From Pecten maximus (lineage: Eukaryota): a stretch of 64,000 nucleotides of DNA. The notes below the pieces were generated by a model. It was not told the DNA's origin and searched no databases. It worked only from the letters and a program-made list of their open reading frames with translations. The translations under genes and the position numbers were made by a program. The stretch covers positions 50,592,001-50,656,000 of the forward strand of contig NC_047016.1 in the NCBI RefSeq assembly GCF_902652985.1, given 5' to 3'. This document shows, piece by piece, positions 23,343 to 59,858 of the stretch. The first letter of the stretch is position 1, and each line of letters begins with the position of its first letter.

Positions 23343-25465
23343 AATCAATCATCAATCAATCAAATCTTTTATTCCTCTGTTAAGAGATTTACAAAATGAA
23401 AAGTTAATATTTACATAAAATTAGGTTGAATGTGATCAATTGAATTATTTTCTACATGTCCATGTATGAATTACATTACTATTGCTGTCACATTTAATAC
23501 TGGTACTGTTTGCAATATTGCATAAGTTACATGATGAGTTAGTTTAGGAGAAAAACATATGTGCAGCACTTCTAATGTATTTAGCACTGTCCAATAAAAA
23601 TCCCTGGTAATCCTCTATAGATTCGTATATCTCTGCTGGAATTGTTTTGCCAAGAAGAGTTCTAAGGAAATTCTCATGGTGTAAGTTGTCCAAGTAGATA
23701 AATAATTCGATGCCGTATTTATCTATTACCAGTATTGTGAATATGTCACGAAGGTCAGCTGTAGCACTACACACAGTTACAAAGTGGAGAATGGCGTCTA
23801 TGTACGATACATTACATAATTTACATCGTTGCTCCCTCCACAGGGGGGAGCATGCCACCATTTTACACACGAACTTGACAATTTGGAGGTCTTTACTAGT
23901 TTTTGGTGTATTCCATAGAATATATGGATATTCATTTGTATCATGGATGTCTCTAAATCTCAAAAAGTCTAAATCTGTCACAAGTCTGTCTTTCAGGAGG
24001 GTGTCTTCCATTGTTTTAATAGAATGTGAGACAATCCATTTCCAAGCCGTTTTAGAAGGGAAGTAGATATTTACCAAGTACTCCTGCAGGAAGTTCTGCA
24101 AGTTGTATTTGTATAAAATACACCAAATATCAGGAATAAATCCAAGCTGTTTGTTATAAGGGTTTTCAATATATTGGAACAATATTCGAAGAAGTATTTG
24201 CTTAGAAAGTGTATCTGGTTCCATGTGAATGAGCGTAGAGAGGAAGTTGAGCTTCCTTTTATCGATTTCTGACTCTAGTCTAGGAAGACCAAGCATTGAT
24301 TCACACATGTCAGATCTGGTTAATTTCCGTAAGGATTGGGATCTTTTCGCAATCGTGTGTTGTAGAACGTTCAGGTGTTGAATATCATGTTTTGACATTT
24401 TTGACCAAAATTCAGAACCATAAAGAACACTTGGTATTATAACCTTCTTGTACAATGTCGTGGTTTTTAAAGGGTTGGTCCATTTACAGTCATGTCCGAA
24501 TTTGGTTATTAGATTAAAACAGTTTCTGCCTTTAGTACGTGCATTTTCTATCGCGGACTTACTCTTGAGATCGGTAGAAATAATAATACCAACATGTTTA
24601 TATAAATTCGCGGTTTGTAAATTATGACCCATGATTGACCAATTGAAATCGATATTTCTTTTATGGTTGTTTCCGAAGATAAGAACAGTGCATTTGTCTG
24701 CATTGTATCGGAACTTCCATGTTTTCGCATAATTTGTGCAAATGTCTAATAGCGTTTGTAAGGCTGAGGGACTGGTTGCAATCAAGGCAATGTCATCTGC
24801 AAGATTGCTACAATTTATGTCGTATATCTTGGCACCAACACGGCTGTGTTCTAACTCTAAGAGAATGTCGTTTATGAAGACGAGATATAAAAAACTGGAG
24901 ACCACGCCTCCTTGTCGAATTCCGGATCTGACTGGTAGCCATCTTGATCTTGTACCATGTGTTAAAACTGCGCTATACATGTCAATATATGAATTGTTAA
25001 TTAGATTTGATAATTTTCCTCGCACACCGAATTTGAATAACTTTTGCATGAGACCACAATGCCACACAGTGTCGAATGCCTTTCGCGTGTCTAGAAAAGC
25101 TACGAATGTTTTACTGTTGTTTTCCAAATTGTAGTATATAGTTTCTCTCAAATTAAACGCAGCTGTGGAGCAGCTGAGGTTTCGTTGGAAACCTTGTTGT
25201 TGTTTACAAAGAGGGTTCGTGACACACGACAGCCAACTCTGGATTCTGTTGTTGATAAGTTTTTCTAGTAGTTTATAAAATGCAGGAAGTAATGTAATCG
25301 GGCGGTAATTGTCAGGATTATTTTTGGGTTTATGTCCTCCTTTGTAGATTGGAATGACAATGCCACATTTCCACGTTTTTGGTATAAATCCTTTGTCAAG
25401 TATGGCGTTAAAAAGTTTGAGGATACTAATAAACAATTTCCGTCCTCCATAACGTATATGTTCAT
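23343..25465 (-). mobile_element. 5'-truncated LINE (RTE-X/L2-like) with (GATT)n tail
   Basis: RT ORF, 3' UTR, and AATAAA followed by a GATT microsatellite on the minus strand at ~23343-23373. Confidence 0.85.
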
Positions 25466-25481
25466 TACAAATGTTGTACAT
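23544..25481 (-). CDS. LINE ORF2 fragment: reverse transcriptase plus C-terminal zinc-knuckle
   Basis: NYRPITL, QQGFQ, FLDTRKAFDTV, GIRQGG, LADD, YKHVGI and CKLC...H...C motifs. The endonuclease is missing and the ATG probably comes from flanking DNA. Confidence 0.9.
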   Translation of the reverse strand: MYNICNEHIRYGGRKLFISILKLFNAILDKGFIPKTWKCGIVIPIYKGGHKPKNNPDNYRPITLLPAFYKLLEKLINNRIQSWLSCVTNPLCKQQQGFQRNLSCSTAAFNLRETIYYNLENNSKTFVAFLDTRKAFDTVWHCGLMQKLFKFGVRGKLSNLINNSYIDMYSAVLTHGTRSRWLPVRSGIRQGGVVSSFLYLVFINDILLELEHSRVGAKIYDINCSNLADDIALIATSPSALQTLLDICTNYAKTWKFRYNADKCTVLIFGNNHKRNIDFNWSIMGHNLQTANLYKHVGIIISTDLKSKSAIENARTKGRNCFNLITKFGHDCKWTNPLKTTTLYKKVIIPSVLYGSEFWSKMSKHDIQHLNVLQHTIAKRSQSLRKLTRSDMCESMLGLPRLESEIDKRKLNFLSTLIHMEPDTLSKQILLRILFQYIENPYNKQLGFIPDIWCILYKYNLQNFLQEYLVNIYFPSKTAWKWIVSHSIKTMEDTLLKDRLVTDLDFLRFRDIHDTNEYPYILWNTPKTSKDLQIVKFVCKMVACSPLWREQRCKLCNVSYIDAILHFVTVCSATADLRDIFTILVIDKYGIELFIYLDNLHHENFLRTLLGKTIPAEIYESIEDYQGFLLDSAKYIRSAAHMFFS

Positions 25482-28400
25482 AAAACAAAATATAAAAAAT
25501 AAGAAATAAAGTAAATGTTTGTGTGTTTTCTGGAACTATTTTTGAAACATGTGGTTAAATGATTTAGTTGATATTAATACCAGGACCACGACGCATAAGT
25601 AAGATAGCGATTATATCTATTTACAGTATAACTCGTATACGGTTTTTATGGGAGGCGTGCCTCACATTATAGCATCAGCTAGGATTGGCTTTCATTGCGG
25701 AACCAATCGTTTGGTACCTCAAGCGGCTATCTCCGTAATCACGGGAGACAACTCGTACGGTGTCTTCTCACTTAGCCAACATTCTGAATTTTGAGGTATA
25801 CAGGTAAGGTATTTTGTTGGCCAAGTGACTCTATGTGTGAAAGGTAGAACAATAGGAGATAATTACAGGTAAGGCTATAGACTGCTTCATAAAACTTCAA
25901 ACTTTAATGAGGATATCATCGTGATCTATTTCTATTGAGTCATTTCTTATTTATTTCAATTTCAACAGACCAAAAGGTCCAATTACAGAATCGATAACAA
26001 ATTAATAAAATATATCATAAGATAAAATAAAATGCATAGTAAGAACAAATACGGTATATAAAGAGCATACACGTGTAAAATAGATTTGACGTCCTAAATA
26101 TATATCATCTAGACAATCATGTTATGAACAGTAAAAAACCTAATTCTAAAAACAAATCTCCATGTCCAACTTAAATCTTTCAAGTAAGACGCTAAAAAAC
26201 CTGTCAGAAACATGCCCAAGGTAGTTAATTTGGACACTACATTATCTTACATTAATCCGGCATTTACAGGGACACAACAGAGTTGAGCTACTCAACCTTA
26301 AAAACCGATGTGGAACTAAAAAGTTAATTTCTTCTGTGAAATAACTACAAAGTTCAATCAAACATATAAACTATATGAATTTACGTCTACATTCCAGACT
26401 AGGAAAATTGAATTGTGTACACATTTGCAAGTAAGATAGACCATTATAGTTTAATTTCGATTTAATTAGAGACGTGTATATCACGTAACAGTAATGTTTG
26501 TAAATGGCCTGCAATTACGTTTTAAAAATCCAAATATTGGCATGGCCTTACCAACCATTTATTAAACATGTAATGAAAAGTAAAAATTTTGAGTGAGCCA
26601 TACACCTAAGTCTTTAACATGTGTTTCCTTCTTAAGAGATCCACACGGCAAAAAGGAAAGTTTTGGAAAAACGTACAACAGAGGGTAAATAATTTAAATT
26701 GTGTAGGTTCAGGCGTGACATTACATTGTGTATATAGACATTTTTGGTGTCATCTCACTAACATCACCTCATCAATGGTAGTTGGAATAGCACAAACTTC
26801 TTCACAACAACATTGTTTTATTTCATTAAGAAACACATCACTGCTATAGTTTGATATAATTTTATAAGAACTGGTACGAACGGAATAGATTTCATTTGGT
26901 TTCTTTTCGTAATTTTTTTTTAATAAAATAACTGAATACGTACACACAGATTTAAGTAACAGCGATTAAAGACAATTGTACTTGTTAATACATCTATCAT
27001 TAAAATTACAATTTAAACTTGAAATTAGATATGAGGCTAGGTTTCATAATATATCTCGATTAAATAAAATTGGGTATAGTTTAAGTATTTACCGCAAACA
27101 TATAAGATTTATTATGATAAGTAGCCTACATAAATTCATTTAAATCTTTATCACATAAGTCATATTCAACTTGTCATTTTCATATTTTCTTTCATGAAAA
27201 GTAAGAACAGACTATAGATGAAACTCACTCAGGTGTACATTTTGACATGTTGGTCAGGTAATACAGATACATTTCAGAATGTTGGCTAAGTGAGAATGAA
27301 CCACTCGTACATACCGACACAATACACAACCCATTTATAGCGATAGTATATTTTGAATGTTGTGATTGTTTATTATAATTCTCATAAAATCCCCCAAAAG
27401 AAATATATATCATTTTACATCGACTTTGAATGCCACCAGAGCCTATTAATTATAACAAAACCTATCTACACATAATGTAGGCACACAAGTACTCGGTCAG
27501 TTAGTAGGCCAGGTGACAGACGGTCGAATATTTTACGCGTATCTGATTGTAAGTAAAAACCAACGACCTGCATGAATGAGAAAATAAATAAAGATGTTTT
27601 TTTATTGAAGAGATAATATTTCAACCGTCACATAATGTGTTTATATTTTTATAAGCACGCTTACGCTTGCCATGTTAAAATCGCCTATGAGATGTGACGT
27701 CAAAACCTCTCGCTTTCATTATATTTCCATTCACAGTTTTTATTTTTTTTTTTTTTTAATTTTTTTTCAGTTTCTTTTGGTTCATATATGATGTAGTTAA
27801 ACTATATATGCATTTATGAAAAATATCAAGATTTCAAATAAAGTGCTATTACACGAAAAATGTATATATTTGAGACGTCTGGTGGTAGCCTGTTATCAAA
27901 AATTCATCGCAGAGTTCCAAGTACGAGAAGGGTTGGCAACCGGTATACTCGGTACAAGTACCGTACCGACATTCGTTTTACAAAATACCGGTATTTGCAA
28001 GAATAATAACATTAAAATCTGACATAAAAAACTTGACTTAACAGTTATTTTGTTCAGTTGTTTCAATCACTTACTAAAATGATGTCGCAACTTTATCGCT
28101 ATTTTCTATATAAACATCTATCCTAGCTTTACTTGTAGTTTCGTATCCATATGTCTCATTTTTGTCGTGTGTGTTGAAAAGTCGAAATCAGAAATCAATA
28201 ACTTACAAAAGATTTAATCATCTCTTTAGATGTCATATTTTATATTTCTGTATCAAAATATGTAATTAAATCAACGATCACGTGATCCGTCTGTTCACGT
28301 CTGATCACGTGATCAATCAGTCAAAATGGCGCCTTTTTGATACGGGCTTCATCCGAAACTCTAGTGTGATGTTTGTCACTAGAGTATTTATCAACACGAA

Positions 28401-30778: not shown

Positions 30779-31300
30779 AGACACAAGAGATCCCAGAGGA
30801 ATCTTGGCGCCCACCATTGAATGATCTTTATATGTTCCATGTCAGATTAATCGTCTCTCTATTTTCCCTTCCTCTTACTAATCTGTGTAAATTGAGAAAC
30901 ATCCCTCCAGTACTTTTCAAGCAAGGGGAACCTATATATGAAATTTGAGATTTAGCGATAATGACTGTCTGTCGGCCATGTTGTTTTCCGACTGATACGA
31001 AAATGCAATATGCATAACAAAGGACCAAGGGGAACCTACATATGAAATTTGAGAAAGATCCCTTCAGTACTTTCTGTAAAATAGCTATAACAATCTTCAA
31101 TTGTCAAAATACAAGATGGCTGCCTGTCCGCCATGTTTTTTTTTTCGATTGGTGTCAAAATCTAATATGCATAACTAGACACCAAGGGAAACATACATAT
31201 CAAATTTGAGAAAGATCCTTTCAGTACTTTCTGAGAAATAGCGATAACAAGAATTAATTACGGACGGACGGACCACGGACGCAGGGCGATTTGAATAGCA
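30779..31300. mobile_element. Helentron-associated (pearl/CvA/HINE-like) element with internal tandem units
   Basis: Starts ACAAGAG plus a short hairpin, has repeated AAATTTGAGAAAGATCC...CAGTACTTTCTG units, and ends in a (GGAC)n microsatellite. Confidence 0.55.
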
Positions 31301-31819
31301 AAAATACATTGTAAATGTTTAATAATAATTTAACCTGTCATGTTAAACAATATTAATAGACCCATGTGAATAACAATACTATTCTAATACACAACAGTAT
31401 AATTGACAGTTGTTTTTAGATCAGTATAATAATTAGACTTTGATAATGCAATTCAATAGTACTAGTCTGTGAACTGGACAAGTGGAAGTTTGAAACTCAA
31501 TTGGACAGTTAAGACCGTTATATTCATCAGGATGGTTAAAAGCATTATGTTTATCAGGACGGTTTAAACACTTAAGTATGAATGTTAACTACTTAAGCAG
31601 AAATTTGTTTGAAACACTTAAGTAGAAATATTTAACTATTTAAGTGGAAGCTTGTTTTAAACAATAAGTAGAAATGTTAAACAACCCCACTAAAAGTGTT
31701 GACTTTAAGCATTTAAGTGGATATGTTTAAATACTTTAGTAGAAGTTTGTTTGAAACTTCGATATGGTCAAACCATTACACTGTGTGTCCATCAGAATTG
31801 AAAACCATTTCATCTAATT

Positions 31820-32702
31820 TGTGATGTTATACGACTTTATTCCACAAAACTCCCCGGAGGAAGGTAAAAGACTACAACATATGAAAATGAAAACACAATG
31901 AGAATATGATACAGATGTACACACTGTCACTATGCAAACCATTATGTCTAACATATGCCTTTCTTTCACTGATATTCGAATACAAAACTGATTTTGAGCA
32001 ATAATCGGATATTTAACACAAATATCACTTAATAAACTGACTAGATTTCTTTGCTGGATATATATACACTATCTTTGGAGTATTCATGGATGGACAGAGT
32101 AACAACAATAGTTTAAAACACATTTATAGATATAATTAACTCAAATGACTAATAGGACGTTTTGTCCAAGGTAAGTAATAATAGGACGAATTGACCTAAT
32201 CGCTTTCTGACCAAAATACAACTATAATTCGTCTGATGTCTTATTCCTACACTGTCGCTGAGTAGAATTTACATAAGACATATTAATAAACTAATATACG
32301 AAATAATACTGACATATATAGATCCTAAACATGACTAGATGGCACGGACCATGTGCTTCACTGAATGACAGACAGTTCATATGACTGACATTTCGAACAC
32401 ACATACAGATCATATCTTTTACAGACTAATGTTGACAATCATATAATCAATGCAATAAATGTTCGATCGGCAAGAATTGATATGGACAGGGAATAAACTC
32501 ACCCTGTGGGGGACCTAAAGTTTCCTTTGACATGAAATGTGTACAGTGCCGGAGCACGCCATTGCAAACTTCCTCTAAGATTGCCAAAGGGTACGACTAA
32601 CGTCCGGACCGCAATGTCCGGATCATACTAAAGCTTGGACCGCAATGTCCGGATCATATTGTAATCAAATTAACCCTGTGATACAATAATGGTAACATAA
32701 CA
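31820..32702 (-). repeat. 3' LTR (883 bp)
   Basis: Matches 39132-40003 apart from an 11-bp insertion (ATAAGACATAT). Preceded on the minus strand by PPT TCAGGAGGGGAG (32703-32714). Confidence 0.95.
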
Positions 32703-32841
32703 CTCCCCTCCTGATATGATCTATATCACTACTTAAACACAAACAGATTGTTCAGATTTGTGACACTCAGAAAACATGAGAAATGTTCAAAGTTTCTTAT
32801 CATCAGAAATAATTTCACCTACATAACTAAAATAAACCAAG

Positions 32842-35800
32842 TCAATCAGAACTGGTAAGAAATACAACTTCGGTCACCGGGCGGACAAAATATGAGATTT
32901 TGTTGTCTCGTACAATGCGAATCTCCACTTTTCGCACAAGTTCATCGTCACTCTTGAACACACGATTTATAATTCCAAGAGGCCATTCCATGCGAGCAAC
33001 ACTACGATCTCTCATTAGCACAATGTCACCTTCTTTGAGATTTCTCTGTTGCTGTTGCCACTTGTTGCGCGACTGTAAGTTTACGAGGTACTCTCTCCGC
33101 CACTTTTTCCAAAACTCTTCTGCCAAAACTTGCACGCATTTCCATTGATGCCGATATAAGTCCTTTTGGCTGAGATGTTCACAACTAACGGATGAATTTG
33201 AAGTCTTTTGAGTGAGCAATGCAGACGGCGACAGCACGGAGGGATCTTGAGGATCGGTTGACACAGGAGTAATGGGTCTTGAATTCATGATGGCTGTTAC
33301 TTCTGCCATCAGAGTGGTAAGTATTTCGTGAGTCAGAGTTCTACCTTTCATATCCAGTAGCATGGAATCCAAGATCCTTCGAGCGGTGCCAATCATGCGC
33401 TCCCACACACCACCCATGTGGGAGGCATGTGGGGGATTGAAGCGCCAAACCGTACTGTTCTCCAATAGGAAATTGGCCAGTTTAGGTTCATCCACACTAA
33501 TCGTCTGGAATCCCATATCTTGAGTGCACCCAACAAAGTTGGTTCCATTGTCGGAGCGAAACTCTCTCACAGGTCCTCGAATTGAGATGAATCGGCGTAA
33601 AGCATTTATGAAAGAGGAAGAAGACATTTCCTCAATCACCTCTATATGTGCAGCTCTAGATACTAAACAGGTAAAAAGCACTGCCCAGCGCTTGGATTGG
33701 GATACGCCTCCTCGAGTACGTCTGGTTGTGATGTTCCAGGGTCCAAATACATCTACCCCTACATAAGTGAATGGAGCGCATGGCTCTAATCTGTCAGGAG
33801 GAAGATCGGCCATTTGTTGGTGGCTTGGTTTTCGACGAAGTCGACAGCACGTAACACAAGCATGGAGAATAGAAGAAATTAGGCGCTTGGCACCGGTCAC
33901 CCAATATCCGGCAGATCGCACAGCACCTTCTGTCAGATGCCTTCCCTGATGACGCACCACTGAATGAAAATGTTCGATAATGAGCCTAGCCACATGATGC
34001 TTTCCAGGCACTATGATAGGATTCCGATCCTCCAGCGGGAAGTTTGAGCGGTTGAGCCGACCACCAACGCGAAGAATCCCATCTTGATCCAAGATTGGCG
34101 TCAGAGCAGAGATGCTGCTCTTACTAGGCAAAGTTTTTGATTCCCTCAAACATTGTAGTTCTTCAGAGTAGACTTGCTGTTGAACATCCTGGAGTATAAA
34201 GATCCGGGATTTCTCAAGAAGATCTGTGGTGACTCTTCGGGTATGTGTAGTTGATCGATTTTTACTAGCAATTGCAAGGGACTTGAGGTTAGCAATGCCT
34301 CTTACCAATGAGTTCCACGTAGAGAAACGTTTGACTCGCTCAGCTCCTATACCCTGTGGTGCTGCACAGGAAGTTTTGAGGACTTTGACTTCTTGTCTCA
34401 CCTCAACGTCCTTGCCTGGTTGAACAAGAGGATAACCTGGAGTCTCAAGATCTGTATCCTCCCTTAGAACACTTGATCCCTGCAGCCACATACTTTCTTG
34501 TAGATCGCATGCATTTACACATCTAGTTCCTTCATCTGCAGGATTCTTTTCAGAAGAAACGTGACTCCACTGGGAAGCTTTTGTAAAGCCAAGTATCCTG
34601 TCCACACGGTTGCCGACATAGACGTAAAATCTTCGTACACGATTATGTAAATATCCCAACACGACCATACTGTCAGAGTAAAAGTGCATGTTTTCCGCGG
34701 GAATGTCCAGTTGGTCATTTATGGTGCGACCAAGATCGGTGGCCAAGACAGCAGCGCAGAGCTCTAAGCGCGGAATCGTATGTCCATGCTGTGGTGCGAC
34801 TTTCGCTTTTCCAAAGATAAAGCTTGTACCGATCTGATTATTAGTGTCTTTGGTCCGAAGGTAAGCTACAGCTGCGACAGCGTCCTTTGAGGCGTCGGAG
34901 AAGATGTGTACTTCCTTTTCTAAATCCTCGTATACTGTACCAATTACATACTGTCGAGGGATAGAACAAGTGCGGAGCTGTCCAAGGGAACTGTACCAAG
35001 ATTCCCACTCCCGACGTCGTTCCTCTGGCAGCGGTTCATCCCACTCAGAAGACAACTTAACGAGATCTCTGAAGAGCAACCTACCCCGCAGAATAACAGG
35101 AGCTGCAAATCCGATTGGGTCATAGATACCGTTGATGGTTGATAAAAGACCTCGTTTGGTGTAAGCCTTTTCAGTTACTCCTGCACTAAAGATAAATGAA
35201 TCTGAGGCCAGATTCCAAAGTAATCCCAGACTGCGCTGGACTGGTGGGCAGTCTGTTGAAAGATCGAGATCTCTGATATCTCCTGCCAAGTCCTCACGAT
35301 CAAAGGTTTCAAGTACCTCTCTTGAATTGGATGCAACTTTGTGAAGTCTTATTCCACCGTTTTCCTGTAGACACCTTTGGGTTCTCTTAATGAGTGATAC
35401 AGCGGTAGTCACATTCGGTGCGGAAGCTAGTCCGTCATCTACATAAAAATTCTGTGTAACAAAATTCCGAATGTCCTCGTCAGAATTCTCTGCTGCCTTT
35501 CTAAGACCATAGGTTGCAACTGCTGGAGACGGCGAATTCCCGAAGACATGAGCAGTCATTCGATACTCGATCAACGGCTTGGCAATAGAGTTGTCTGCGT
35601 ACCAGAAGAATCTCAGAAAATTGCGGTGTTCCTGAACTACTTTGAAGCAGTAGAACATTTGTTCTACATCCGCCATGATAGCAATAGGGTCTTTCCGAAA
35701 CCTGAGTAAAACACCCAGAAGGCTGTTAGTAAGATCTGGACCTGTCATGAGCACGCTGTTTAGCGACAGGCCATTTTCCTTAGCCGAAGAGTCAAAAACA

Positions 35801-38800
35801 CAACGAATTTTATCTGGCTTTTTAGGATGGTAAATTCCAAAGAGAGGCAAATACCAACGCTCTTCTTCATCGTCAAGATCAGAAGCAACTTCTGCGTGTC
35901 CCTTATCCAACACTTTAGACATGAACTCCATCATATGGGAACATTTCTGAGAGTCTCTTCGGAGACTTGTATCCAAGGTCCTTGCCCTTCGTAGACTCTG
36001 AGCCCTGTTGTCAGGCAGTCGCGGACGATCCGTTTTTAATGGAAGAGGAGCTTCCCACTGACCATGATCATTTTTCCTGAAGCCAGTGTCCATCACATGT
36101 AAAAACTCTTTGTCCTCCAAGGAAAGACCAGGTTTATCATCATGGGGATTCTTTACAAACAGGGGGAAGTTATCTGTCTTAGGAATGTCTTCTTTGAAGT
36201 CGAAGCAATTGGGACAAGGTTCAAATAATGAAGGACGACCATTGGCAAGGGTGTGTACCTTATTTGCAGTGATGTAGGATGTCTGGTGAACTTTACCAAG
36301 ACACACCTCACCAACAACTACCCATCCGAGCTTGAGGCGCTGCGCATATGGTCCATCTGAGGGCCCTATCCTCTGATCTATGATGTGGTGTGCTGCAGGC
36401 ATGTCACGACCTATCAACATCAGAATATCTGCGTTCCTATCGAGAGGTCGAAGGTGTTGAGAGATGTCCCGCAGATGAGAATGGAAGTGAGCCGCCTCAG
36501 GGGTAGGTATTTCATTACGGTTATTTGGGATATTGTCACATTCCAGTAAGACTGGTAGATCAAGAGCAAAATCTCCATCCATTGACTCCACAACGTATCC
36601 TTGCGCCTTCCTTCCAGAGGAGGAATTAAGTCCAGAACAAGAAGCCATGGTATATTCTGTATATTGGCTATTTTCTCCAAAGCTGTCGAAAAAGGCTGTT
36701 CTGGCTAACGACATGTTGCTTTGATCGTCTATTATGGCGTAGAGACGGATGGATTTGTCTGGCTCTCCTTTAGGATAGACTTTGACCAAAATTGTTTTAG
36801 CACATGATTTGCTGAATCCCCTGGAGTCCTTACACACTTGTGTGCAACTGCTACTAGCTTGAAGATAGTTTGGTTCTCTTCCGGGAGGTGATGAAGGACT
36901 ACACTCCCCTCCATGGACTGGTGGGGACTTCTCCGAGAGAAATTGTTCATGGAGTATTGTAGGGTGACGACTACCACCACAAATATCACACTTCACAGCT
37001 ACTTTACAGGTTTTCGCTAGGTGTTTGTCCTCACAGCATTTAAAGCAATAACCGTTCTTTTTAAGCACTTCTTTCCTTTCCAGCACAGTCTTGGCTAGGA
37101 ATAAGCGACAGTCTTTCAAGCTATGACGGGCACTTCCACCATGAATAGGACAAATATGAGCTGGAGGGACTGGTTTCTCTACATCAGTCTTCTTAGCAGA
37201 CAGCATCATTCTATTTCCGGTCCGTTTACCAACACTGTTAACCTGGGCTTTGACCTGTGTCGATTGTTGAGTGTCAAACTGCAGACCTGGATCGTTCAAT
37301 CGTTCTGTCATACCCTTCATGAAGCCAGTGAAAATGTTAAATGGTGGATAAAGGACGCCTTGGTCTTTCTTGTATCTAAACGCTGTATCCGTCCATTTCC
37401 TTTGTATGAATGCTGGAAGTTTGGCCACTATGGGGTTGATTCCAGCTGAAGAATCTAGGTAGGCCAGGGAAGTGGTGTACATGACATTCTCCTTTAAGGC
37501 TTGCATCTCAATGAGTAGGTCTGACAGTTCATACATCTTTACATTATCTTTGTATGTTAATTTGGGTAATACCTCAAGCCTTTTCTTGAAGGAATGTATA
37601 ACAAGTTCTGGAGCGCCGTAACGACTGTCAAGTCTCTCCCAAATCCTTGTGATTGCTAATCTTTCATCATGAGTGTGTGCAGCCCTGAGGCTCAAAGCTT
37701 GTTGGGTGGACTCGGGTCCTAACCATCTGATAAGAAGATCAAGTTCTTCTGTAGCAGTGACTTCAAGCTCCCTAATGAGATTCTTAAAACTATTTTTCCA
37801 CAATGTGTAACGTTGTGGTTCGTCCGAAAACTGTGTGAATCTAGACAATAATAAATCTCTTTTCATTAGAAACTTTGTGAGTTCATTGGTATCTCTGCAT
37901 GTTGGTTGGAATTCGGTGGCCTCTGGACGAAGCATGCCACATGCAGGTGAATTTGTTGGCTGAAGCATACCAGGTGACGAACTTGGTTGTTGAAGCATAC
38001 CAGGCAACAGACTTGGTTGTTGAAGCATACCAGGTGCAGGACTTGGTTGTTGAAGCATACCAGGCAACAAACTTGGTTGTTGAAGCATACCAGGTGCAGG
38101 ACTTGGTTGTTGAAGCATACCAGGCGACAGACTTGGTTGTTGAAGCACACCAGGTGACAGACTTGGTTGTTGAAGCATACCAGGCAACAAACTTGGTTGT
38201 TGAAGCATACCATGCGCCAGACTTGGTTGTTGAAGCATCCCAGGTGCAGGACTTGGTTGTTGAAGCATACCAGGCGACAGACTTGGTTGTTGAAGCACAC
38301 CAGGCGACAGACTTGGTTGTTGAAGCACACCAGGTGTAGGACTTGGTTGCATTACCTCGCGACCAACATGATCAATTGCACTATTCACAAATGCAGCTGT
38401 TCTTTCTTTTTTAGTCGACCTTATATCATAATCAACAGATCCATTCTCTTCCTCAATAAGATCATGTACTGCATCAAGCTCAGCCTCCGCCTCTTTCAAG
38501 TTTCTTTCTGACCGCAGCAATTTCAGACTCACATCAACCTCTGCTTGTTGTTTCAGAACTTGAGCCTCTTTCTTCATAAATTCTAGTTGAACCTTTGCCC
38601 TTTCATGTTTCAATCTTTGTTTCGTTAATATGTAACTTGCAGACGACTTGTGCGAGCGACTCGACTGAGATGAACATGATGAAGCTTTCGACGAATGGCA
38701 AGGTGTCTTGTGTCCAGCATTAGGTGATTTTGATTCCTCGTGTTCTATTTTAGGTGGTACATACTTCTGAGTGGCCTCTAAAGCTAAATCAATCTTTGAC

Positions 38801-39093
38801 AGAAAACTTTCACGAATAAGGCCATGAGCAGAAAGTTCCCTAGCACTGTCCATGGTACGTGTCCTATGGAGGAAATCAATGAATTGATTCGAAATATCCA
38901 AATAGACTGTCCTGCTCTTAGCTAGCTCATCTATTAAACCTTCTTCCATACTGGTCATGGTCTGACTGATTAATCCGTTAATCCTCTCTCCTTGTTTTGA
39001 CAAACTTTTGCAGAAGTCTTCTACCCTGCTTAGGAAAAGTGTTTCTCCTCCTGGTGTCAGGTTTCTGGTGCGTTGTTCATGTATTGAATCCAT
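32842..39093 (-). CDS. BEL/Pao Gag-Pol polyprotein (Gag, PR, RT, RNase H, IN), 2083 aa
   Basis: Three Cys/His knuckles, protease AIIDDQS, RT YVDD, RNase H FSDAS/IPRLELCAA/NPAD, integrase HHCC plus GVDVFGP/SDNGTNF/GGVWERM. Confidence 0.97.
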   Translation of the reverse strand: MDSIHEQRTRNLTPGGETLFLSRVEDFCKSLSKQGERINGLISQTMTSMEEGLIDELAKSRTVYLDISNQFIDFLHRTRTMDSARELSAHGLIRESFLSKIDLALEATQKYVPPKIEHEESKSPNAGHKTPCHSSKASSCSSQSSRSHKSSASYILTKQRLKHERAKVQLEFMKKEAQVLKQQAEVDVSLKLLRSERNLKEAEAELDAVHDLIEEENGSVDYDIRSTKKERTAAFVNSAIDHVGREVMQPSPTPGVLQQPSLSPGVLQQPSLSPGMLQQPSPAPGMLQQPSLAHGMLQQPSLLPGMLQQPSLSPGVLQQPSLSPGMLQQPSPAPGMLQQPSLLPGMLQQPSPAPGMLQQPSLLPGMLQQPSSSPGMLQPTNSPACGMLRPEATEFQPTCRDTNELTKFLMKRDLLLSRFTQFSDEPQRYTLWKNSFKNLIRELEVTATEELDLLIRWLGPESTQQALSLRAAHTHDERLAITRIWERLDSRYGAPELVIHSFKKRLEVLPKLTYKDNVKMYELSDLLIEMQALKENVMYTTSLAYLDSSAGINPIVAKLPAFIQRKWTDTAFRYKKDQGVLYPPFNIFTGFMKGMTERLNDPGLQFDTQQSTQVKAQVNSVGKRTGNRMMLSAKKTDVEKPVPPAHICPIHGGSARHSLKDCRLFLAKTVLERKEVLKKNGYCFKCCEDKHLAKTCKVAVKCDICGGSRHPTILHEQFLSEKSPPVHGGECSPSSPPGREPNYLQASSSCTQVCKDSRGFSKSCAKTILVKVYPKGEPDKSIRLYAIIDDQSNMSLARTAFFDSFGENSQYTEYTMASCSGLNSSSGRKAQGYVVESMDGDFALDLPVLLECDNIPNNRNEIPTPEAAHFHSHLRDISQHLRPLDRNADILMLIGRDMPAAHHIIDQRIGPSDGPYAQRLKLGWVVVGEVCLGKVHQTSYITANKVHTLANGRPSLFEPCPNCFDFKEDIPKTDNFPLFVKNPHDDKPGLSLEDKEFLHVMDTGFRKNDHGQWEAPLPLKTDRPRLPDNRAQSLRRARTLDTSLRRDSQKCSHMMEFMSKVLDKGHAEVASDLDDEEERWYLPLFGIYHPKKPDKIRCVFDSSAKENGLSLNSVLMTGPDLTNSLLGVLLRFRKDPIAIMADVEQMFYCFKVVQEHRNFLRFFWYADNSIAKPLIEYRMTAHVFGNSPSPAVATYGLRKAAENSDEDIRNFVTQNFYVDDGLASAPNVTTAVSLIKRTQRCLQENGGIRLHKVASNSREVLETFDREDLAGDIRDLDLSTDCPPVQRSLGLLWNLASDSFIFSAGVTEKAYTKRGLLSTINGIYDPIGFAAPVILRGRLLFRDLVKLSSEWDEPLPEERRREWESWYSSLGQLRTCSIPRQYVIGTVYEDLEKEVHIFSDASKDAVAAVAYLRTKDTNNQIGTSFIFGKAKVAPQHGHTIPRLELCAAVLATDLGRTINDQLDIPAENMHFYSDSMVVLGYLHNRVRRFYVYVGNRVDRILGFTKASQWSHVSSEKNPADEGTRCVNACDLQESMWLQGSSVLREDTDLETPGYPLVQPGKDVEVRQEVKVLKTSCAAPQGIGAERVKRFSTWNSLVRGIANLKSLAIASKNRSTTHTRRVTTDLLEKSRIFILQDVQQQVYSEELQCLRESKTLPSKSSISALTPILDQDGILRVGGRLNRSNFPLEDRNPIIVPGKHHVARLIIEHFHSVVRHQGRHLTEGAVRSAGYWVTGAKRLISSILHACVTCCRLRRKPSHQQMADLPPDRLEPCAPFTYVGVDVFGPWNITTRRTRGGVSQSKRWAVLFTCLVSRAAHIEVIEEMSSSSFINALRRFISIRGPVREFRSDNGTNFVGCTQDMGFQTISVDEPKLANFLLENSTVWRFNPPHASHMGGVWERMIGTARRILDSMLLDMKGRTLTHEILTTLMAEVTAIMNSRPITPVSTDPQDPSVLSPSALLTQKTSNSSVSCEHLSQKDLYRHQWKCVQVLAEEFWKKWRREYLVNLQSRNKWQQQQRNLKEGDIVLMRDRSVARMEWPLGIINRVFKSDDELVRKVEIRIVRDNKISYFVRPVTEVVFLTSSD
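37960..38350 (-). repeat. 30-bp coding minisatellite in gag (~13 copies of PGMLQQPSxx)
   Basis: ACTTGGTTGTTGAAGCATACCAGG-N6 units at exact 30-bp spacing. Confidence 0.95.
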
Positions 39094-39131
39094 CTTTACA
39101 GATCCTGAGGTCTGAGTCGCAGGTCTTTTAC

Positions 39132-40003
39132 TGTGATGTTATACGACTTTATTCCACAAAACTCCCCGGAGGAAGGTAAAAGACTACAACATATGAAAAT
39201 GAAAACACAATGAGAATATGATACAGATGTACACACTGTCACTATGCAAACCATTATGTCTAACATATGCCTTTCTTTCACTGATATTCGAATACAAAAC
39301 TGATTTTGAGCAATAATCGGATATTTAACACAAATATCACTTAATAAACTGACTAGATTTCTTTGCTGGATATATATACACTATCTTTGGAGTATTCATG
39401 GATGGACAGAGTAACAACAATAGTTTAAAACACATTTATAGATATAATTAACTCAAATGACTAATAGGACGTTTTGTCCAAGGTAAGTAATAATAGGACG
39501 AATTGACCTAATCGCTTTCTGACCAAAATACAACTATAATTCGTCTGATGTCTTATTCCTACACTGTCGCTGAGTAGAATTTACTAATAAACTAATATAC
39601 GAAATAATACTGACATATATAGATCCTAAACATGACTAGATGGCACGGACCATGTGCTTCACTGAATGACAGACAGTTCATATGACTGACATTTCGAACA
39701 CACATACAGATCATATCTTTTACAGACTAATGTTGACAATCATATAATCAATGCAATAAATGTTCGATCGGCAAGAATTGATATGGACAGGGAATAAACT
39801 CACCCTGTGGGGGACCTAAAGTTTCCTTTGACATGAAATGTGTACAGTGCCGGAGCACGCCATTGCAAACTTCCTCTAAGATTGCCAAAGGGTACGACTA
39901 ACGTCCGGACCGCAATGTCCGGATCATACTAAAGCTTGGACCGCAATGTCCGGATCATATTGTAATCAAATTAACCCTGTGATACAATAATGGTAACATA
40001 ACA
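39132..40003 (-). repeat. 5' LTR (872 bp)
   Basis: TG...CA ends; AATAAA near the LTR end (39148-39153, minus strand). Confidence 0.95.
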
Positions 40004-43000
40004 TAATTGGCTTTAAACACTTGAGAAGAAACGTTTAATTACTCAAAACCTCACTCTTGAATGTATCTATCAACAATCATGTTGATATCAGTTTAATTTC
40101 TCTTCTTGCTTTATTTCAAATATCACCTTTTCATCTGGCTAACGCCTCCCTCAGTACTTTCAGTACTTTGATTAATTATTTATTCAGTCATATCAATACC
40201 ATATCGATATAATATTAGTTTTATATAGTAATACCAACGAATCATATCATAAAAGGAATATTAAAAGCAAATAAAAATACCCAGTTAACTGTAAATAAAA
40301 TGATGTAATAATGGTGTCAATGAAAGATAAGGAACCACTCTTTTTGACGAATGGACATTTAGTACCCCGTCAAATTTCAGGTTGATTTGACCATTCCCCG
40401 AAAGAACATCTTTGGGACGAGTTGGACAGCAGTATAAGTAATAGGTCAAACCCTCTAATAGCCCAGTTGGAGTTTCTTTTAACTTCCTTGATATATATTG
40501 ATGTCAGTTAATCCTTTATAATATCACAAAGGGACGCGGATTAATATCAGTTTAAAACTTGTTTCTGAATCCCATTCAAATTATCATTTTGTATTGTATA
40601 TGTATGAAATGAATAAAATAGTTTATATTAAAGGGAGGGCTATTTTGTCTATTTGATCTCGGTACACATCATTTAAATATTCGTGAAGTTTCATTGTGTG
40701 ACCTTAATTGAATTCCTCGAGAGATTGTGAAAAAGATAAAAAAAAAAAAACAAAAAAAAAAAAACTTAAAATATAGATTAGTAATACACTAAGTGTTTGT
40801 TACAACATCGGAATCTGAGTGGTGATTTGAGCCAAAGGAAAAGTGTGGTTAATCTAACAACCAAAGTTGTGTGCTGAGAACTAGCTGGCGGTGACAAACA
40901 TCAAAAGTCGAAACACAATGGGTGATTAAGACTACCTTTGACATGTATCCTAAATATTAATTTGTTTAATGAAACCTGACACGACCGACACAAACAACAT
41001 AACCGAGATAAAATGTAGTATTTGATAGCGTGTTTGATTTAAATAGTAATTGCACAGGGATAGTCAGACCTATTATCAAAATGTATAAGCGTATATTTAT
41101 CTTGTTGTATCTATTTTAAGACGTAAAATGGCAATAAATCTGGATTTAGAAAATACAGAAATGCTAATGGACCTTAATTACCACTTACCGATTCAAAATC
41201 AGTCATGCATAACTATTAATCGATATACCTTGTATGTGCCCGACCCTTATTGCTTTCAAACCTACAGTCATCCAGTCTTAGTGTCAGGCATTTGGAGACA
41301 TTTTTAAGAACACAATGTCAAGAAACGCTACCCCGCAAGCTATTTGGGTTTTCTGATGTCTGATATTGTAAATCTTGGGGTTTTTATGGTTTTTCGAAAA
41401 CATTTTTTTAGTCCGCTTCATCAGTTACCAGGCATTTTAAATCGTATAGCACGCGGTTATACACTGGAATTTATGGTATATGTTTACTGATGTACCGTGT
41501 AATTATTCTTGTGTGTATTATTTACAGTAAAGTGTTAATGGAAATGATTCTTACTGAATATTGAGGTAAAGCTGTTATTAGTTTTGTTATTAATTTTTGA
41601 GTTTTCATGTGGTAGATGGAAATTAAATTTTACGTTGTGTAGTTGATTCTGAGCTGGGCACTTTAGGTATGGTGTGGGTCGCCATTTATATAAGCCAAAA
41701 CAACACAATGTGATTAGAGAATATAGTAAAATGACGGGAGAGATTCATTTGAAACTGCAGTTTATCAAACTTATGAGCTAAAGTTAATCTGTAATCTTGT
41801 ACCAATCAGCCGTGCGTGAGTATAAGAGTAAAATATGGGCCTTTAGTGAAGCGTTTCGGAGCAGCAGGAATAATATCTGACCGTCAAATTAGCAAACTAC
41901 TTCGAATAAATTAGCGTATGCGCAGTGGAAAAAGGCTAACCAGATTAATAAGCGCGGAAATCGGTAACATAATCATGACGTCGTCTTTTTGTGACGTTAA
42001 AAAAACGTCAACTAGTCGGCGCATTTGTGGAAGGACTGATCAACGCGATTTTGGCGTTTTCACTTGTTACCCGATAATCTCTGTACAAATAGCTAACGTC
42101 TAGTGAGTATTTTGTCAAAAACTAAACTGAATATTGCGGAAACGAGTGCCCATTTACCCTCACCACGAGGTAGGCTAACAACAAATGGCTGAAACGTACA
42201 GCTTCTATAAAACATTCGACCACGTCACTACTAAATCTGTTTCATTACACACGCTTGCCATGGGTAATTTTCCTTGCCAACTGCAGGCATACTACCGTAT
42301 ACGCAGTCAAATGAGTTACAATCCTTAAATAACATAGAGTTGCATATTTAACATTTAAATTCATTAATATACAGATATGCTAATCAACTTTGATTGTTCT
42401 TGGTGATGCAGTGTTCTGTCCCCATTTAGTTGTTGAGTGCCTCCATATCATGTTGGAACAGGTCTTTATTTAAGTTTTGATAGACATTTTCTGGAGTTGG
42501 AGCCGTTAAAAAAATGAGCTACATGTTCTAATTAACTGTCCATGATTTGTAATCCACATATATCCATATTTATAGCACCAAACTCGGCAACGACAAGACT
42601 GACATAGAAGCGTATTTTATAGAAATTGATCTTTTATTGTGCTCAAATATTTTTCCTTCTACATATTCTCTGTATTTTCTTATAACATTCGAGATAAACG
42701 CCTGTATCAATTTTTAATACTGATGTTCAAAGTAGGAATTGTTTTTATTGAGGATGATATTCTAACAAGCAAATTCAATATGTAGTTGTTTAAACACACA
42801 TACATTCTGAAAACAAAAGTCTAAATAATTGAGTATTACATGTCATGTTTTAATGTGACATCCCGAACAAGGAAAACACACATGCTTTGTCCCGCTACCA
42901 ACATGTTAAGCATTTAAATTGTACCACAAATACTCGAATTAAGATAATAATGTATGCCAACCATGTATGTGTATCCATTGAACAGAGGAAGAAAATCCCT

Positions 43001-54500: not shown

Positions 54501-56714
54501 TGATGTGCCCTATATGTATTGGAGAATACAGGCGGTCAGTTTCTGAATTCTTAGGATCCTGCCAGACATCGCTATGGCCTAATATATAGCAATTTATGTA
54601 AATCTATGGATATCCTAATTTGGTAAGTGTAAAGGCGCTAGTCATAGATCAATTTTGTTCATTAATAAATAATAGTTTATCAGATTGAATTTCTTATTGT
54701 CTTGTTTTAATTACAATCTTATAAATTAATTGGTCTAAATATTTTGAAATGAAATACATAATATAAACAAAGGAATTAAACGGAAGTTACTATTTTTCTA
54801 GCAAAAGATAAACACAGAATATGTAACATAAAGCACGTAAATAGAAAAGCGGAAATGACTCTGACTCATCAGAGAGATTGGAACGTTTGAAGACACAGGT
54901 CCTTGTATGACAATAATATGTCAAAACTACTTTTTACTGCATATAAAATATTATATAACAGGGCAACAACTTAAGTGGAGTTTAATTAACGAAAAATCAA
55001 AAAAAAATGTTAACATTAAAAATAGGTACCAACGATTTGTGCATTAGTTAATATAATTTTAAAAAAATGAATAAAGACGTGTTTTTAACTATCTATGATT
55101 GGGGTCACGTATTGGATCGCCTATGCAGAACTCCAAATAAAAAATGACCATGTGATAGTATAGACAACGTGTTTATACTGTGCACATTCACGTGGAAGGC
55201 AATTTGTTACTGGCAAGACGAACACGTACACACGTGTGCGTATAATATTTTGCACGTTGTTGGGTAATAGAGAAGGAAGTGTTTGTTCATATATATAAAT
55301 ATAAGGACTCAGGACTTATTTATAAATATATTTATGGAGACTCATGATATAGGATTAAGTATTCAATATTTAGGTAAGTTTTATACGTATATTTATATTT
55401 AAATTATCTTTTGATTGACATTTACCTGCATAATGCATTGGACACACCGTACCTATGAGAGCATAGAGGCATTATACCGATGGAAAGTAAATAAACAATT
55501 AGATTTATAAAATAATCATAAAAATATGAAGATTAATGAACATGTTCTGTGGTAATTTCTTAATTAATATACATGCATATATTTAAGGAAAAATTCCTGG
55601 ATTTCAACCAGAAATTTAGTTGTTCACCATAAGCCATAGCTAGAACAAAGACGTACATTAATATTGAACATGGAGTAATACAGGATATATGAGACGATTA
55701 AATAGATATGGCATATGAGATTCATTAGATGATTTACATGCACTGTATATTTCCTTGATACATATACAGTCAAACCTCGTTAACTCGAAGTCGTCGGGAT
55801 CGTGAAAAAACTTCCGAGTTATCCGAGTCTTCCAGTAAACCGAGTTTCAAGGTAACACGCATCCTTAACAGAAACACGCCTATTTGATTTCAAATACTAA
55901 TTATAACAAAATCGTATTTATTATTTATGCTAGACACGACATTTCTAAAAAGTAAATTATATATGATACAATACTATCATATCGTTTTGAAATCAAGTAA
56001 GCCAGTATATTTGTGATTGGGAGTCGTGTCTGACATGCCATTTCTAAGTGAGTGAAAGACGAGAAGATTAATTGAGGCTTATGAAAATAAGCCAGGTTTG
56101 AATGAACAAACATAGATATACTTACCTGATTAAAATAGTTATATATATAGAAGTAGATGAAATCAGAAGTTATAGGATGTTTTAAAGATATAATGTAATG
56201 AATAACTTCTTTTAGATCTAGTATGTACACAATCAAGATACAATCCTAAATATATAGTAACCATCAGTAGAGCTCTCTGATTGGTTAAGAAAATTAGAGG
56301 GGACGCCATTGTGTTTACAGCTTCAGTAACAGAAAGACGTCTCAAATGTGTCTCAAAAAATCTTCATAATCTGGATCAAATCATAGCAATATAACATCTT
56401 AACGGTATTATTATGCAGATGGACGATATTCTGAACATGTCATAGGTTCTGTGAACGAGGATACTTCTCTAGTGTGTGAATCAAAAGGACTTGCAGTCAT
56501 AGACAACTTTCTAAACAATCCTTTGTTTACGTATGGAATATTGAACGTGAATTGTCAATAAGTCTGTCGGAACTCTAAAATAGTTAGGACCCTGGACTGA
56601 ACAGACGGAATTTATTTCCAAAGAGATGTGTTTTGTTTCCCTACCATCGCACTTAAATTGAGTTTGCGTTCGGTAGCCCAGGAAGGATTTTGAACTGTAG
56701 ATTTAGCTCCTATC

Positions 56715-58197
56715 ATGGCTAGCCGTAGATCCAGATCTACAACCAGACACAACCCATGGGACTCCTCAAACCCTGAAAATTGGACAGTGTCGCAATTAAG
56801 GACAGAATTGGAGAAAATCGGGATTATTGCGCCTAATACGGGCATCAACAAGACTGGTTTAAAAAACATGTATTTAGAAAACGCGGGATGCAGCGCGAGA
56901 AGATCAAACTCGATCATCACGAGTCAGACAAACTCCCAGCCCGAGAGCGTGGACGTGCACGAAAACGATGGTCTGATCGCTTACCCTATGCAGACTGAAC
57001 CCACGAACAATTATGGGCCCGACCCTGCAAGGACAGACGGCGGACTACATTGCGACGCGGAGGTGCGACCTGCTAACAGCACGCCAACAAGTCCGCCACT
57101 ATCGCGCAGTAATACCAGCCCACCGGAAACGGCGGATCAAACAGAAAACAACATGGCGGCGCCCAGTGCTCAAAATACGGACGTCATTCAAAGTATGCTG
57201 GCATCTATGCAGAGCATGCAACAGACCGTCATGGGTCTTCAACAAACCGTCATGACATTGATCGGGTCCCGAGACGACCAACGACGAATACAAGCGAGAC
57301 ATGACGCAACAGAATCCGGTTACAACCTATCAACAGCATACAATGTACGCCGCGATGAGACGTGATACAGAGGGAACCTCACAAACGGACAGAGTACAAG
57401 GTGGGTACACAGCTTGTGGCATATCATCTGAAAGTATTCCTCATATTGATATTGTGTCCGACGCAAATAAAAAGAACATTCTTGAGGGTCGTTACGTTAA
57501 TTTGGCCTCGCTCCTCATACCAAAATACGACACAGAACGATCAGAAGAACAACAACGTAGGGGCATATACATTAACATGAACGACAGTGAAGACCAGAGA
57601 CTAAACAAATCACTGACAATTTCGGAATTTATTACTGCTTTTGGCAAGTTTAAACGGATAATGTGTGGGAAATGCCCAGAAAGAAGAGGAGAGCTCGAGA
57701 TCTACGAGGCCCACATCATAGAAATATCCAACATATATGGCCAGAAATTCTATGACTATCATTGCCAGTTTGCCCTAAAAGCAGCCACAGCACTGAGGGA
57801 TAATAACCAGAAAGTTAATTGGGGCCTGAAAGATAATGGACTCCTGAGCATGGTGGTTGGTAACGCTAAAGTGAACGCATGTCAGTTATGTTCGTCCACA
57901 ACTCACTCCACATCATTCTGTTCCCAACAAAAGAATAGGCGGCCAGGGAAAAACTCACAGCAACAATATAACGGCTCACCACAAGGCTCGAACTCGAAGG
58001 ACACGGACAAATATGGACGTCCAAAAATAAAAATAGATGGAGTTGAAGTTTGCAATAACTTCAATGATGGGAAAAGCCACTATGATACAGGATGTCATTT
58101 CAAACACATCTGCCACACATGTAAAGCTACCAGCCATGGAGCCAAGTCGTGCCGTAAGAACTTAAATGCAAGATCCCGCAGTGACGAGGCCCAATGA
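56715..58197 (+). pseudogene. gag-like ORF1 (frameshifted) with N-terminal SAP/HeH-like helix pair and C-terminal zinc fingers
   Basis: NWTVSQLRTEL, YVNLASLL, FYDYHCQF, CQLC..H..C and CNNFN...C...HIC..C...H...C motifs. Deleting 57342-57348 joins the two ORFs. Confidence 0.8.
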
Positions 58198-58212
58198 CTA
58201 CCCCATCAACCA

Positions 58213-59858
58213 GTGGAGAAAGACAACTCCAGCAAAGCCACAACACCTATAAATATAGACAGATTGAGAAAGGAACTTGTTGAACATCCGGATCGCGAAT
58301 TTGTCAATTATTTATGTGACGGACTGACATATGGTTTCGACACAATGATATCAAATATAGAACTGACAACCAAAGTATGCAAGAACCTGAGGTCAGCTAT
58401 AAATGATGATATGACTGTGGACAAACTCGTAGAGAGCGAAGTAAGCAAAGGATTTCTGTGCGGACCATACAAACAATTGCATTTTCACTCTTGTAGAGTC
58501 AGTCCCATCGGTGTCTCCTATGGAAAGTATTCAGGGAAACCAAGGCTCATAGTAGACCTTTCGTCACCACATCAGGATGAACAACACCCTAGTGTCAACG
58601 ACTTAATTAGCAAAGAAGAATGTTCCTTATCATATGTCCGTATTGATGACGCAATAAATCTTATCCAACAACTCGGAAATGATACTACAATGTGCAAAAC
58701 AGATATATCGGACGCATTTAAGTTAATGCCTATACATCCATTACAGTGGCACTTGTACTGTATAGGTTGGAAGGGCAGCTTCTACTACTATACTAAGCTA
58801 GCTTTTGGGTGCCGGTCCAGCCCAAGGTTTTTGACAATCTTTCAACAGCCATATGCTGGATTGCTAGAAACAATTATGGCATTGACCATATTTTACATCT
58901 GTTGGATGATTTCATCACATTTGAAGAACCAGGAAAATGTGGTGACAGAAATATGTCTATGTTGTATGTCATCTTCAATGGCCTAAATATACCGATGGCT
59001 CTACATAAGACCTGCGGACCAAACACAGTGATATAATACCTAGGTATCATTCTGGACTCTCATAAAATGGAAGCTAGACTGCCGATAGACAAACTTCAGC
59101 GAGATACAGAGATACTCCGATCATTTCAGAACCGTCAGTCGTGTACAAAGAGAGAACTTCTTCAACTATTAGGTCATTTAAATTTTGCCAGTAAAGTTAT
59201 TATCCCAGGACGCAGTTTCGTATCACACATCATTAAGTTATCGACTACTGTGAAAGCCCTACACCACCATGTCAAACTGAATAGTGAATGTAGGGAGGAC
59301 ATTAGAATGTGGTTAACTTTTCTGCAATACTGGAACGGAGTAGGCATTTTTTATGATCTACAGATAACTACAACAGAGGACATCAAGTTGTACACAGATG
59401 CGTCTGGAACTAGAGGATTCGGGGGCTACCTACAGGGACAGTGGTTCTCCCAGGCATGGCCACCGAATATGCAGGATTATGTTCATAGCACGGACGAGAT
59501 ATCCATAGCTTTCAAGGAGTTGTACCCCATAGTCGTGGCAGCTATGATATGGGGACACAGATGGAAAGGCTTGCGAATCATATTTATGTGTGATAATATC
59601 GCGACCGTTGCCATTTTACATAAAGGCCGCTCGAAATCGGCGCATATCATGCCACTTATGAGGCGTCTTACTATGTGCGCAGCTAGAAATAACTTTGTGA
59701 TTATGGCTACACACGTACCTGGCAAACTTAATTTGATAGCTGACTCTCTGTCTCGTTTACAGATGGCACGGTTCCGCACACTAGCCCCAGAAGCAGACTA
59801 CATTCCTTGCCAAGTGCCACATCCGAAGGTCATCTTGTGGAACTCAGAAGAACCGTAG
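58213..59858 (+). pseudogene. RT-RNase H ORF, disrupted by a frameshift (~58820) and a stop (59034-59036)
   Basis: RLIVDLS, KTDISDAF, LAFGCRSSP, HLLDDF, YTDASG, KELYPI, CDN and ADSLSR motifs. Confidence 0.9.

Follow-up and report, generated by a model that had tools for sequence, protein, structure and literature searches.

A BEL/Pao retrotransposon of Pecten maximus whose putative self-primer is split by a predicted intron in its LTR

Results

The window, meaning the whole 64,000-nt stretch analysed here, carries on its minus strand a young LTR retrotransposon whose two LTRs, compared pairwise, differ by one 11-nt indel only and are otherwise identical. Read from its 5' end, the element is laid out as follows.

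40004..40008, minus strand: target-site duplication AATTA, with its partner at 31815-31819
39132..40003, minus strand: 5' LTR, TG...CA, 872 nt (LTR comparison)
39907..39959, minus strand: two 22-nt direct repeats, presumed part of U3 and the promoter
39148..39153, minus strand: AATAAA polyadenylation signal
39120..39131 (39131-39120), minus strand: non-tRNA primer-binding site (PBS) GTAAAAGACCTG, adjoining the LTR
32842..39093, minus strand: single gag-pol open reading frame of 2083 aa with its ATG at 39093, encoding Cys-His boxes, protease, RT, RNase H/Pao A17 and integrase
37893..38439, minus strand: 30-nt tandem repeat in gag, in frame, encoding a QQPS-rich 10-aa repeat
32703..32716, minus strand: polypurine tract
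31820..32702, minus strand: 3' LTR, 883 nt (LTR comparison)

A domain search of the 2083-aa protein finds the Pao peptidase A17 domain (PF05380, E 3e-48) at residues 1327-1490, with rve and DUF5641 downstream. Together with the gag-PR-RT-RH-IN order, LTRs, target-site duplication and polypurine tract, this domain is characteristic of BEL/Pao, and by its protein the element is a member of BEL/Pao (Belpaoviridae). Among the best 120 matches, the named homologues are mostly from molluscs, at 52-59% identity, with one from a shrimp and one from a priapulid. The genome holds 9 matches to the LTR of this family, of which 3 include an LTR-plus-PBS junction, and the PBS is the same in all. Stop-to-stop reading frames vary in length among copies of this family (2076, 2098 and 2118 aa). 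An Rfam scan of 31000-41000 gave no match at E<=1, and a search of viral_contigs gave no relative of the element. Elsewhere the window contains a frameshifted DIRS-like retrotransposon with gag-like, RT, RNase H and tyrosine-recombinase frames (56694-60814, plus strand), a 663-aa frame with RVT_1, probably a LINE (23544-25535, minus strand), an uninterrupted 259-aa frame with thioesterase domains 4HBT_2 / Acyl-ACP_TE_C (14022-14801, minus strand) and an AT-rich tandem array of a 23-26-nt repeat (11790-12534).

The primer-binding site and its complement

As the original prediction had it, no TGG follows the 5' LTR; GTAAAAGACC comes directly after the LTR end, its complement GTCTTTTAC lies inside the LTR at 39184-39176 of the minus strand, and AATAAA is found downstream of that complement at 39153-39148. 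Nowhere else in this LTR does a complement of the PBS start exceed 4 nt. The PBS begins GTA and is not the 18-nt tRNA-Arg or tRNA-Gly site of the ICTV profile, which lowers that generalisation and leaves the protein-based placement in BEL/Pao standing. The further proposal that transcription starts near 39185 is not supported: this position is the end of a predicted GT-AG intron (39803-39184), and the remaining PBS finds its match in the exon bases before the donor and not in the adjacent genomic bases. The features in question are these.

39804..39807, minus strand: exon-1 end CAGG, which would supply the 5' portion of the self-primer, pairing with PBS nt 9-12
39184..39803, minus strand: predicted intron in the 5' LTR, 620 nt, GTGAGT...poly-Y TGTAG (splice signals, homologous intron loss)
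39176..39183, minus strand: exon-2 start TCTTTTAC, which would supply the 3' portion of the self-primer, pairing with PBS nt 1-8
39162..39175, minus strand: 5-bp hairpin with a UCCG loop, directly 3' of the primer
31872..32502, minus strand: copy of the intron in the 3' LTR, 631 nt, whose inheritance would need it unspliced

TCTTTTAC begins exactly at the acceptor (39184|39183), the G that opens GTCTTTTAC being the acceptor G, and CAGG ends at the donor (39804|39803), 620 nt upstream. By consensus score this donor, CAGG|GTGAGT, is the best in the LTR, where it ranks first among 68 GT; CAGG also precedes one other, weaker GT, that at LTR position 28. The pyrimidine tract ending TGTAG upstream of TCTTTTAC is what we take, by consensus, to be the 3' splice site. 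Deleting 39803-39184 leaves CAGG|TCTTTTAC, a perfect 12-nt Watson-Crick complement of the PBS. GT(R)AGT donors, poly-Y YAG acceptors and exact removal in two related families (L024, L032; see below) are as found in spliceosomal introns. GC content falls from the upstream part of the LTR into the intron, and no TATA box is present at the expected distance from the predicted start.

In the window copy the duplex formed with 4 upstream nt comes to -16.6 kcal/mol unspliced and -21.0 kcal/mol spliced, and with 7 upstream nt to -21.0 and -22.5 kcal/mol, respectively; since a bulge and G-U pairs allow the unspliced bases to pair as well, the window by itself does not decide between the two forms. The originally proposed extension of the pairing by G-U pairs is accordingly present in this copy, and it is not conserved in relatives. 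The 86-nt region folds with a z of -2.41 (4 of 200 shuffles equally good), the 68-nt exon-2 part on its own with a z of -0.39.

Covariation among families of the same genome

We started from 60 segments of 10 kb, chosen to surround integrase matches, and reduced them, window included, to 26 elements, one per family; left out were extra copies of the same families, 9 without an LTR pair and some with interrupted or cut LTRs. Integrase identity of these families to the window element is 34-61%. Summed over the 26 families, which are related and thus partly non-independent, so that kinship inflates this and the following counts, the complement of the PBS in the element's own LTR amounts to 189, compared to a maximum of 150 in 20,000 permutations. 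The best complement of the PBS start opens at a pyrimidine-rich YAG in 20 of the 26, compared to 1.5% of LTR positions.

Under fixed rules (at least 5 pairs right after an AG, and a donor picked on intronic bases alone) the acceptor model fits 21 of 26 families, and 19 of those 21 gain 3-8 Watson-Crick pairs with their own PBS from a strong GT donor. Permuting the PBS remainders among families for 20,000 rounds gave a mean of 3.3 and a maximum of 10 extending families out of 21, versus the 19 observed, and a summed donor extension of 24 with a maximum of 48, versus 77 observed. Unspliced neighbour bases add 0-1 pair in 21/21 families. Total spliced pairing is 9-14 nt with a mode of 11 (19 families), and the spliced duplex is more stable than the unspliced one in all 19. 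As exon ends, 11 different trinucleotides occur, the majority of which depart from the AG consensus, and the 26 families have 23 distinct PBS 11-mers. These comparisons back the tRNA-independent self-pairing of the original prediction, in that PBS and LTR motif covary among related BEL elements, and they locate the further pairing at the splice donor, not beside the motif. A quick tree restricted to own-genome families is poorly resolved, with an unresolved base; in sister pairs on its starred branches (e.g. L019/L054 and L030/L017) PBS and exon end both differ.

The fixed rules miss 7 of the 26 families (L024, L032, L041, L038, L057, L051, L069). Two of these, L041 and L038, fit with one mismatch, and L057 reaches an 11-nt fit once an offset of 3 nt, identified post hoc, is allowed; the PBS of L032 has one extra base relative to its own primer, and L051 and L069 show no fit to a splice-built primer. 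A C-rich stretch lies 12-17 nt upstream of the primer 3' end in the family comparison, and CGGC and CATG are overrepresented at 40-80 nt ahead of donors, an interval picked after inspection. A hairpin 3' of the primer occurs in some families and is absent from others; those with a CCTC-TCCG-GAGG-type hairpin right after the predicted cut are L015, L023, L027, L029, L068 and that of the window (39162-39175). In L017, L029, L060 and L063 both LTR copies end in TA, not CA. No tRNA-primed BEL clade that could serve as a contrast was found in this genome.

Intron-less copies

Both LTRs of the L024 element are intron-less, joined exactly at the splice sites, and contain a contiguous 12-nt PBS complement, while GTAAGT...TTACAG introns (744, 733 and 671 nt) interrupt, at exactly the same point, the 3 other LTR copies in which the site could be read through. 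Intron length varies among the intron-bearing LTRs of this family (L142-L147; G000 C13, C17, C8, C3964), several of which have extra upstream insertions. In L032 one solo LTR has a 550-nt GTAAGT...TTGCAG intron, and one element and one 88%-identical solo LTR are without it, the loss being exact at GT/AG. Such exact GT-AG loss is the trace of a reverse-transcribed spliced RNA and indicates that the homologous intron is real; the intron-less L024 and L032 insertions further indicate that the joined form does not preclude insertion. Intron-less copies were absent from the 9 LTR matches over the acceptor region in the family of the window, from 32 matches in L022, and from 29 matches, 18 of them close, in L023.

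Elements from other animals

An RT alignment search of metagenome and genome-bin contigs returned 94 loci, evidently animal DNA, of which 78 are at least 5 kb, 41 have a terminal repeat and 14 have CA-defined LTR ends. Some BEL/Pao elements sit in bacterial genome bins (Sedimenticola, Endozoicomonas, Rubritalea and others; L234-L247), likely misbinned contigs of host animals. With the rules unchanged, the acceptor model fits 8 of the 14 and 7 of these 8 extend by 3-5 pairs to totals of 10-13 nt, a result equalled in 1 of 20,000 permutations; the one acceptor-model element that fails to extend is L203. Among the 6 of 14 without an acceptor model, L174 has a contiguous 15-nt PBS complement. Allowing, post hoc, for an offset of 1-3 nt accommodates L243, L245 and L202; L203, L240 and L241 are unexplained by the splice-built model. 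L243 and L245, whose LTR parts are 85-89% identical, differ in a coordinated way: exon end (CAC/TAA) and PBS (GTG/TTA) change together. Over all 40 elements (26 own-genome families and 14 outside), none has a TGG start after the LTR; two have TGG at nt 2-4, and there the self model still fits, at 13 and 11 nt.

Host tRNAs and RNA contigs

Complementarity of the PBS to host tRNAs could be checked in part: the best pairing to a tRNA 3' end is 2 nt or less in a sample of 8 genuine isoacceptor types. Rfam RF00005 scored 63 of ~73,000 tRNA candidates, and ARAGORN, run on 139 loci and the window, returned those 8 types and two long artefacts, with tRNA-Glu, tRNA-Gly and most others outside the sample. 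For a match internal to a tRNA, the pattern of the motif before a T-loop gave 31 matches versus 25 in a reversed control, and these are SINE-like; in the 20 SINE-like matches read, the pairing never exceeded 9 nt and no tRNA was called at the matching site. Decayed tRNA-derived, SINE-like heads (L070-L089) have an anticodon-loop region that resembles the commonest self-primer ends, ..TTTTAC and ..TTTCAC, and an origin of the self-primer from a half-tRNA is speculation.

Assembled contigs of 7 run ids, most of them only guessed to be RNA, contain no splice joint (X6 and X16, whose figures are identical, are possibly a single data set). In X7 and X2, contigs cross the 3' LTR with the intron retained, which fits a micro-exon with 3' retention and equally DNA or unspliced RNA, and is not support. 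An exon of 3-5 nt would escape detection in such contigs; a well-expressed long exon 1 should have appeared.

Discussion

At the level of sequence, these comparisons establish a split complement, covariation of both its halves with the PBS across families, and exact loss of a homologous intron. Because the complement is split by an LTR intron, in a layout common to many relatives, host splicing likely builds the primer. We consider it very probable that priming is splice-built overall, and likely, at good though slightly lower confidence, that this element would prime reverse transcription with about 11-12 nt of its own RNA assembled by host splicing from two 5'-LTR exons. As in Tf1, about 11 nt of the element's own RNA (12 nt in the window) are complementary to the PBS, here in the spliced or intron-less form only. 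That exon 1 is a cap-proximal micro-exon of a few nt we favour by a modest degree; the pairing that ends near 11 nt, the C-rich stretch, the drop in GC and the CGGC/CATG enrichment suggest that transcription begins immediately ahead of the donor.

In the proposed mechanism, transcription would start a few nt upstream of the donor, exon 1 by analogy with Tf1 probably being 3-5 nt, and the spliced leader would fold back onto the PBS, closing a loop of ~44 nt. RNase H would then cut after ...UUUAC, that is, after 39176, as in Tf1. Strong-stop DNA would copy just the 44 nt that follow the cut, and the transfer would be to the 3' R, beyond the primer. Since copying at the 5' end would never reach the sequence before the cut, splicing at that end would carry no cost, whereas the 3' copy must retain its intron; a 3' LTR that normally does so would pass the intron to both new LTRs. 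Plus-strand copying of the primer would rewrite the PBS, keeping the two matched, and occasional splicing of the 3' copy would give rise to intron-less lineages with a ready-made primer. On balance we lean towards the view that a widespread branch of animal BEL/Pao elements delegates primer synthesis to the spliceosome, with a micro-exon spliced onto exon 2 and the 3'-LTR intron retained.

Three other explanations have to be weighed. We judge it highly improbable that unspliced RNA starting near 39185-39190 self-primes in the manner of Tf1, the donor match being incidental: even though in the window copy the last 7 intron bases pair with post-PBS bases via a bulge and two G-U pairs, and the RNA contigs lack a splice joint, the unspliced extension is 0-1 nt in 21/21 families against donor-side covariation in 19/21, the intron is lost exactly in L024 and L032, and exon end and PBS change in a coupled manner between L243 and L245. 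We also count for an unspliced start that YAGT, as we take it, resembles an initiator. Alternatively, the pairing of spliced leader and PBS could be a structure or switch that masks the 5' polyadenylation signal or the PBS, with a host RNA such as a half-tRNA as the primer. Such priming would have to accommodate 23 PBS 11-mers in 26 families, each tracked by its own LTR, a diversity that would be hard for host tRNAs to serve, as well as a duplex whose end coincides with the LTR edge, the obligatory starting point of DNA synthesis, or lies only a few bases from it. It agrees with the 18-nt tRNA-Arg/Gly PBS that ICTV gives for the family (PMC8742986), with half-tRNA priming known in Copia (accessible parts of PMC6317226 and PMC10886601) and with the occurrence of GTCTTTTAC at the anticodon position of decayed tRNA-like SINE heads; the tRNA sample covers 8 genuine isoacceptor types only, yet its 3' ends pair over 2 nt at most and 0/20 SINE-like matches pair beyond 9 nt, and we give host-RNA priming a very small chance.

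The last explanation retains a splice-built primer and has it act in trans or originate in a first exon of greater length: either the other RNA of the dimer or a short LTR transcript that has been spliced would be trimmed to ...UUUAC and annealed to the PBS. Short spliced LTR transcripts are possible given an AATAAA only 22 nt past the primer, and the donor is preceded by 200 nt of LTR. Nevertheless, folding predictions for leaders with 3-30 nt of exon 1 give the cis fold as the structure of lowest energy, each family's PBS follows its own LTR, the pairing ends near 11 nt, and CGGC/CATG at 40-80 nt upstream of donors, in an interval picked after inspection, looks like a promoter at a fixed distance; we regard a primer in trans or from a longer exon as very unlikely, and prefer the cis-acting splice-built primer.

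If true, splice-built priming would extend self-priming to a third LTR superfamily, one that reference texts call tRNA-primed, and primer production by splicing would be a step we did not find in the literature and a fourth type of minus-strand priming. Splicing would act as a licensing step, only correctly initiated and spliced 5'-LTR transcripts being reverse-transcribed, and retrotransposon replication would be tied to host splicing. It would explain the LTR introns and why PBS finders overlook such elements, and would offer a natural system for the minimum length of a first exon and for an intron sequence that is removed near the 5' end of an RNA while being retained at its 3' end. The prediction of the splice-built primer is exact to the base.

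In Tf1, bases 1-11 of the transcript anneal to the PBS and are severed from base 12 by RNase H (PMC7175516), and the PBS is copied into and retained in the cDNA (PMC11042837). Self-priming is reported for Tf1/sushi, Tj1 and Tcn1 and predicted for TAR copia elements in the accessible portions of PMC6317226 and PMC4600332. A term search of the BEL/Pao surveys PMC554778, PMC6238403 and PMC3118150 found neither 'PBS' nor 'tRNA', and the accessible text of PMC3601003, PMC8220671 and PMC10886601 has nothing further on BEL priming. Literature searches, which did not extend to subscription papers, Repbase reports and supplements, turned up no BEL self-priming or splice-built primer.

Comparison with known systems

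The window element agrees with Belpaoviridae as defined by ICTV (PMC8742986) in LTRs within the 0.2-1.2 kb range, a single gag-pol reading frame, Pao A17, a polypurine tract, a 5-nt target-site duplication and an animal host. It departs from them at the PBS: the same profile, which terms replication of the family poorly understood, gives an 18-nt PBS for tRNA-Arg or tRNA-Gly, whereas TGG follows the LTR in 0/40 of our elements. With the plant Ty1/copia elements TAR (Houba, Osr-1) it shares self-priming that is predicted from complementarity, outside the chromoviruses; TAR, unlike the window element, is a Copia lineage, and an intron-split primer goes unmentioned in the accessible part of PMC6317226. 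Like the fission-yeast elements Tf1/Tf2 and Tj1 and the chromoviruses Tf1/sushi and Tcn1, as described in the available portions of PMC7175516, PMC4600332 and PMC6317226, it has no tRNA PBS, and its PBS complements RNA derived from its own LTR; a pairing of about 11 nt, a PBS beside the LTR and a hairpin in the enclosed loop are likewise those of Tf1-type elements. Unlike the Tf1-type Ty3/gypsy chromoviruses, it is a BEL/Pao element with no chromodomain match, and unlike in them the complement is split in the DNA by a putative spliceosomal intron, with the transcription start and the cleavage being predicted here.
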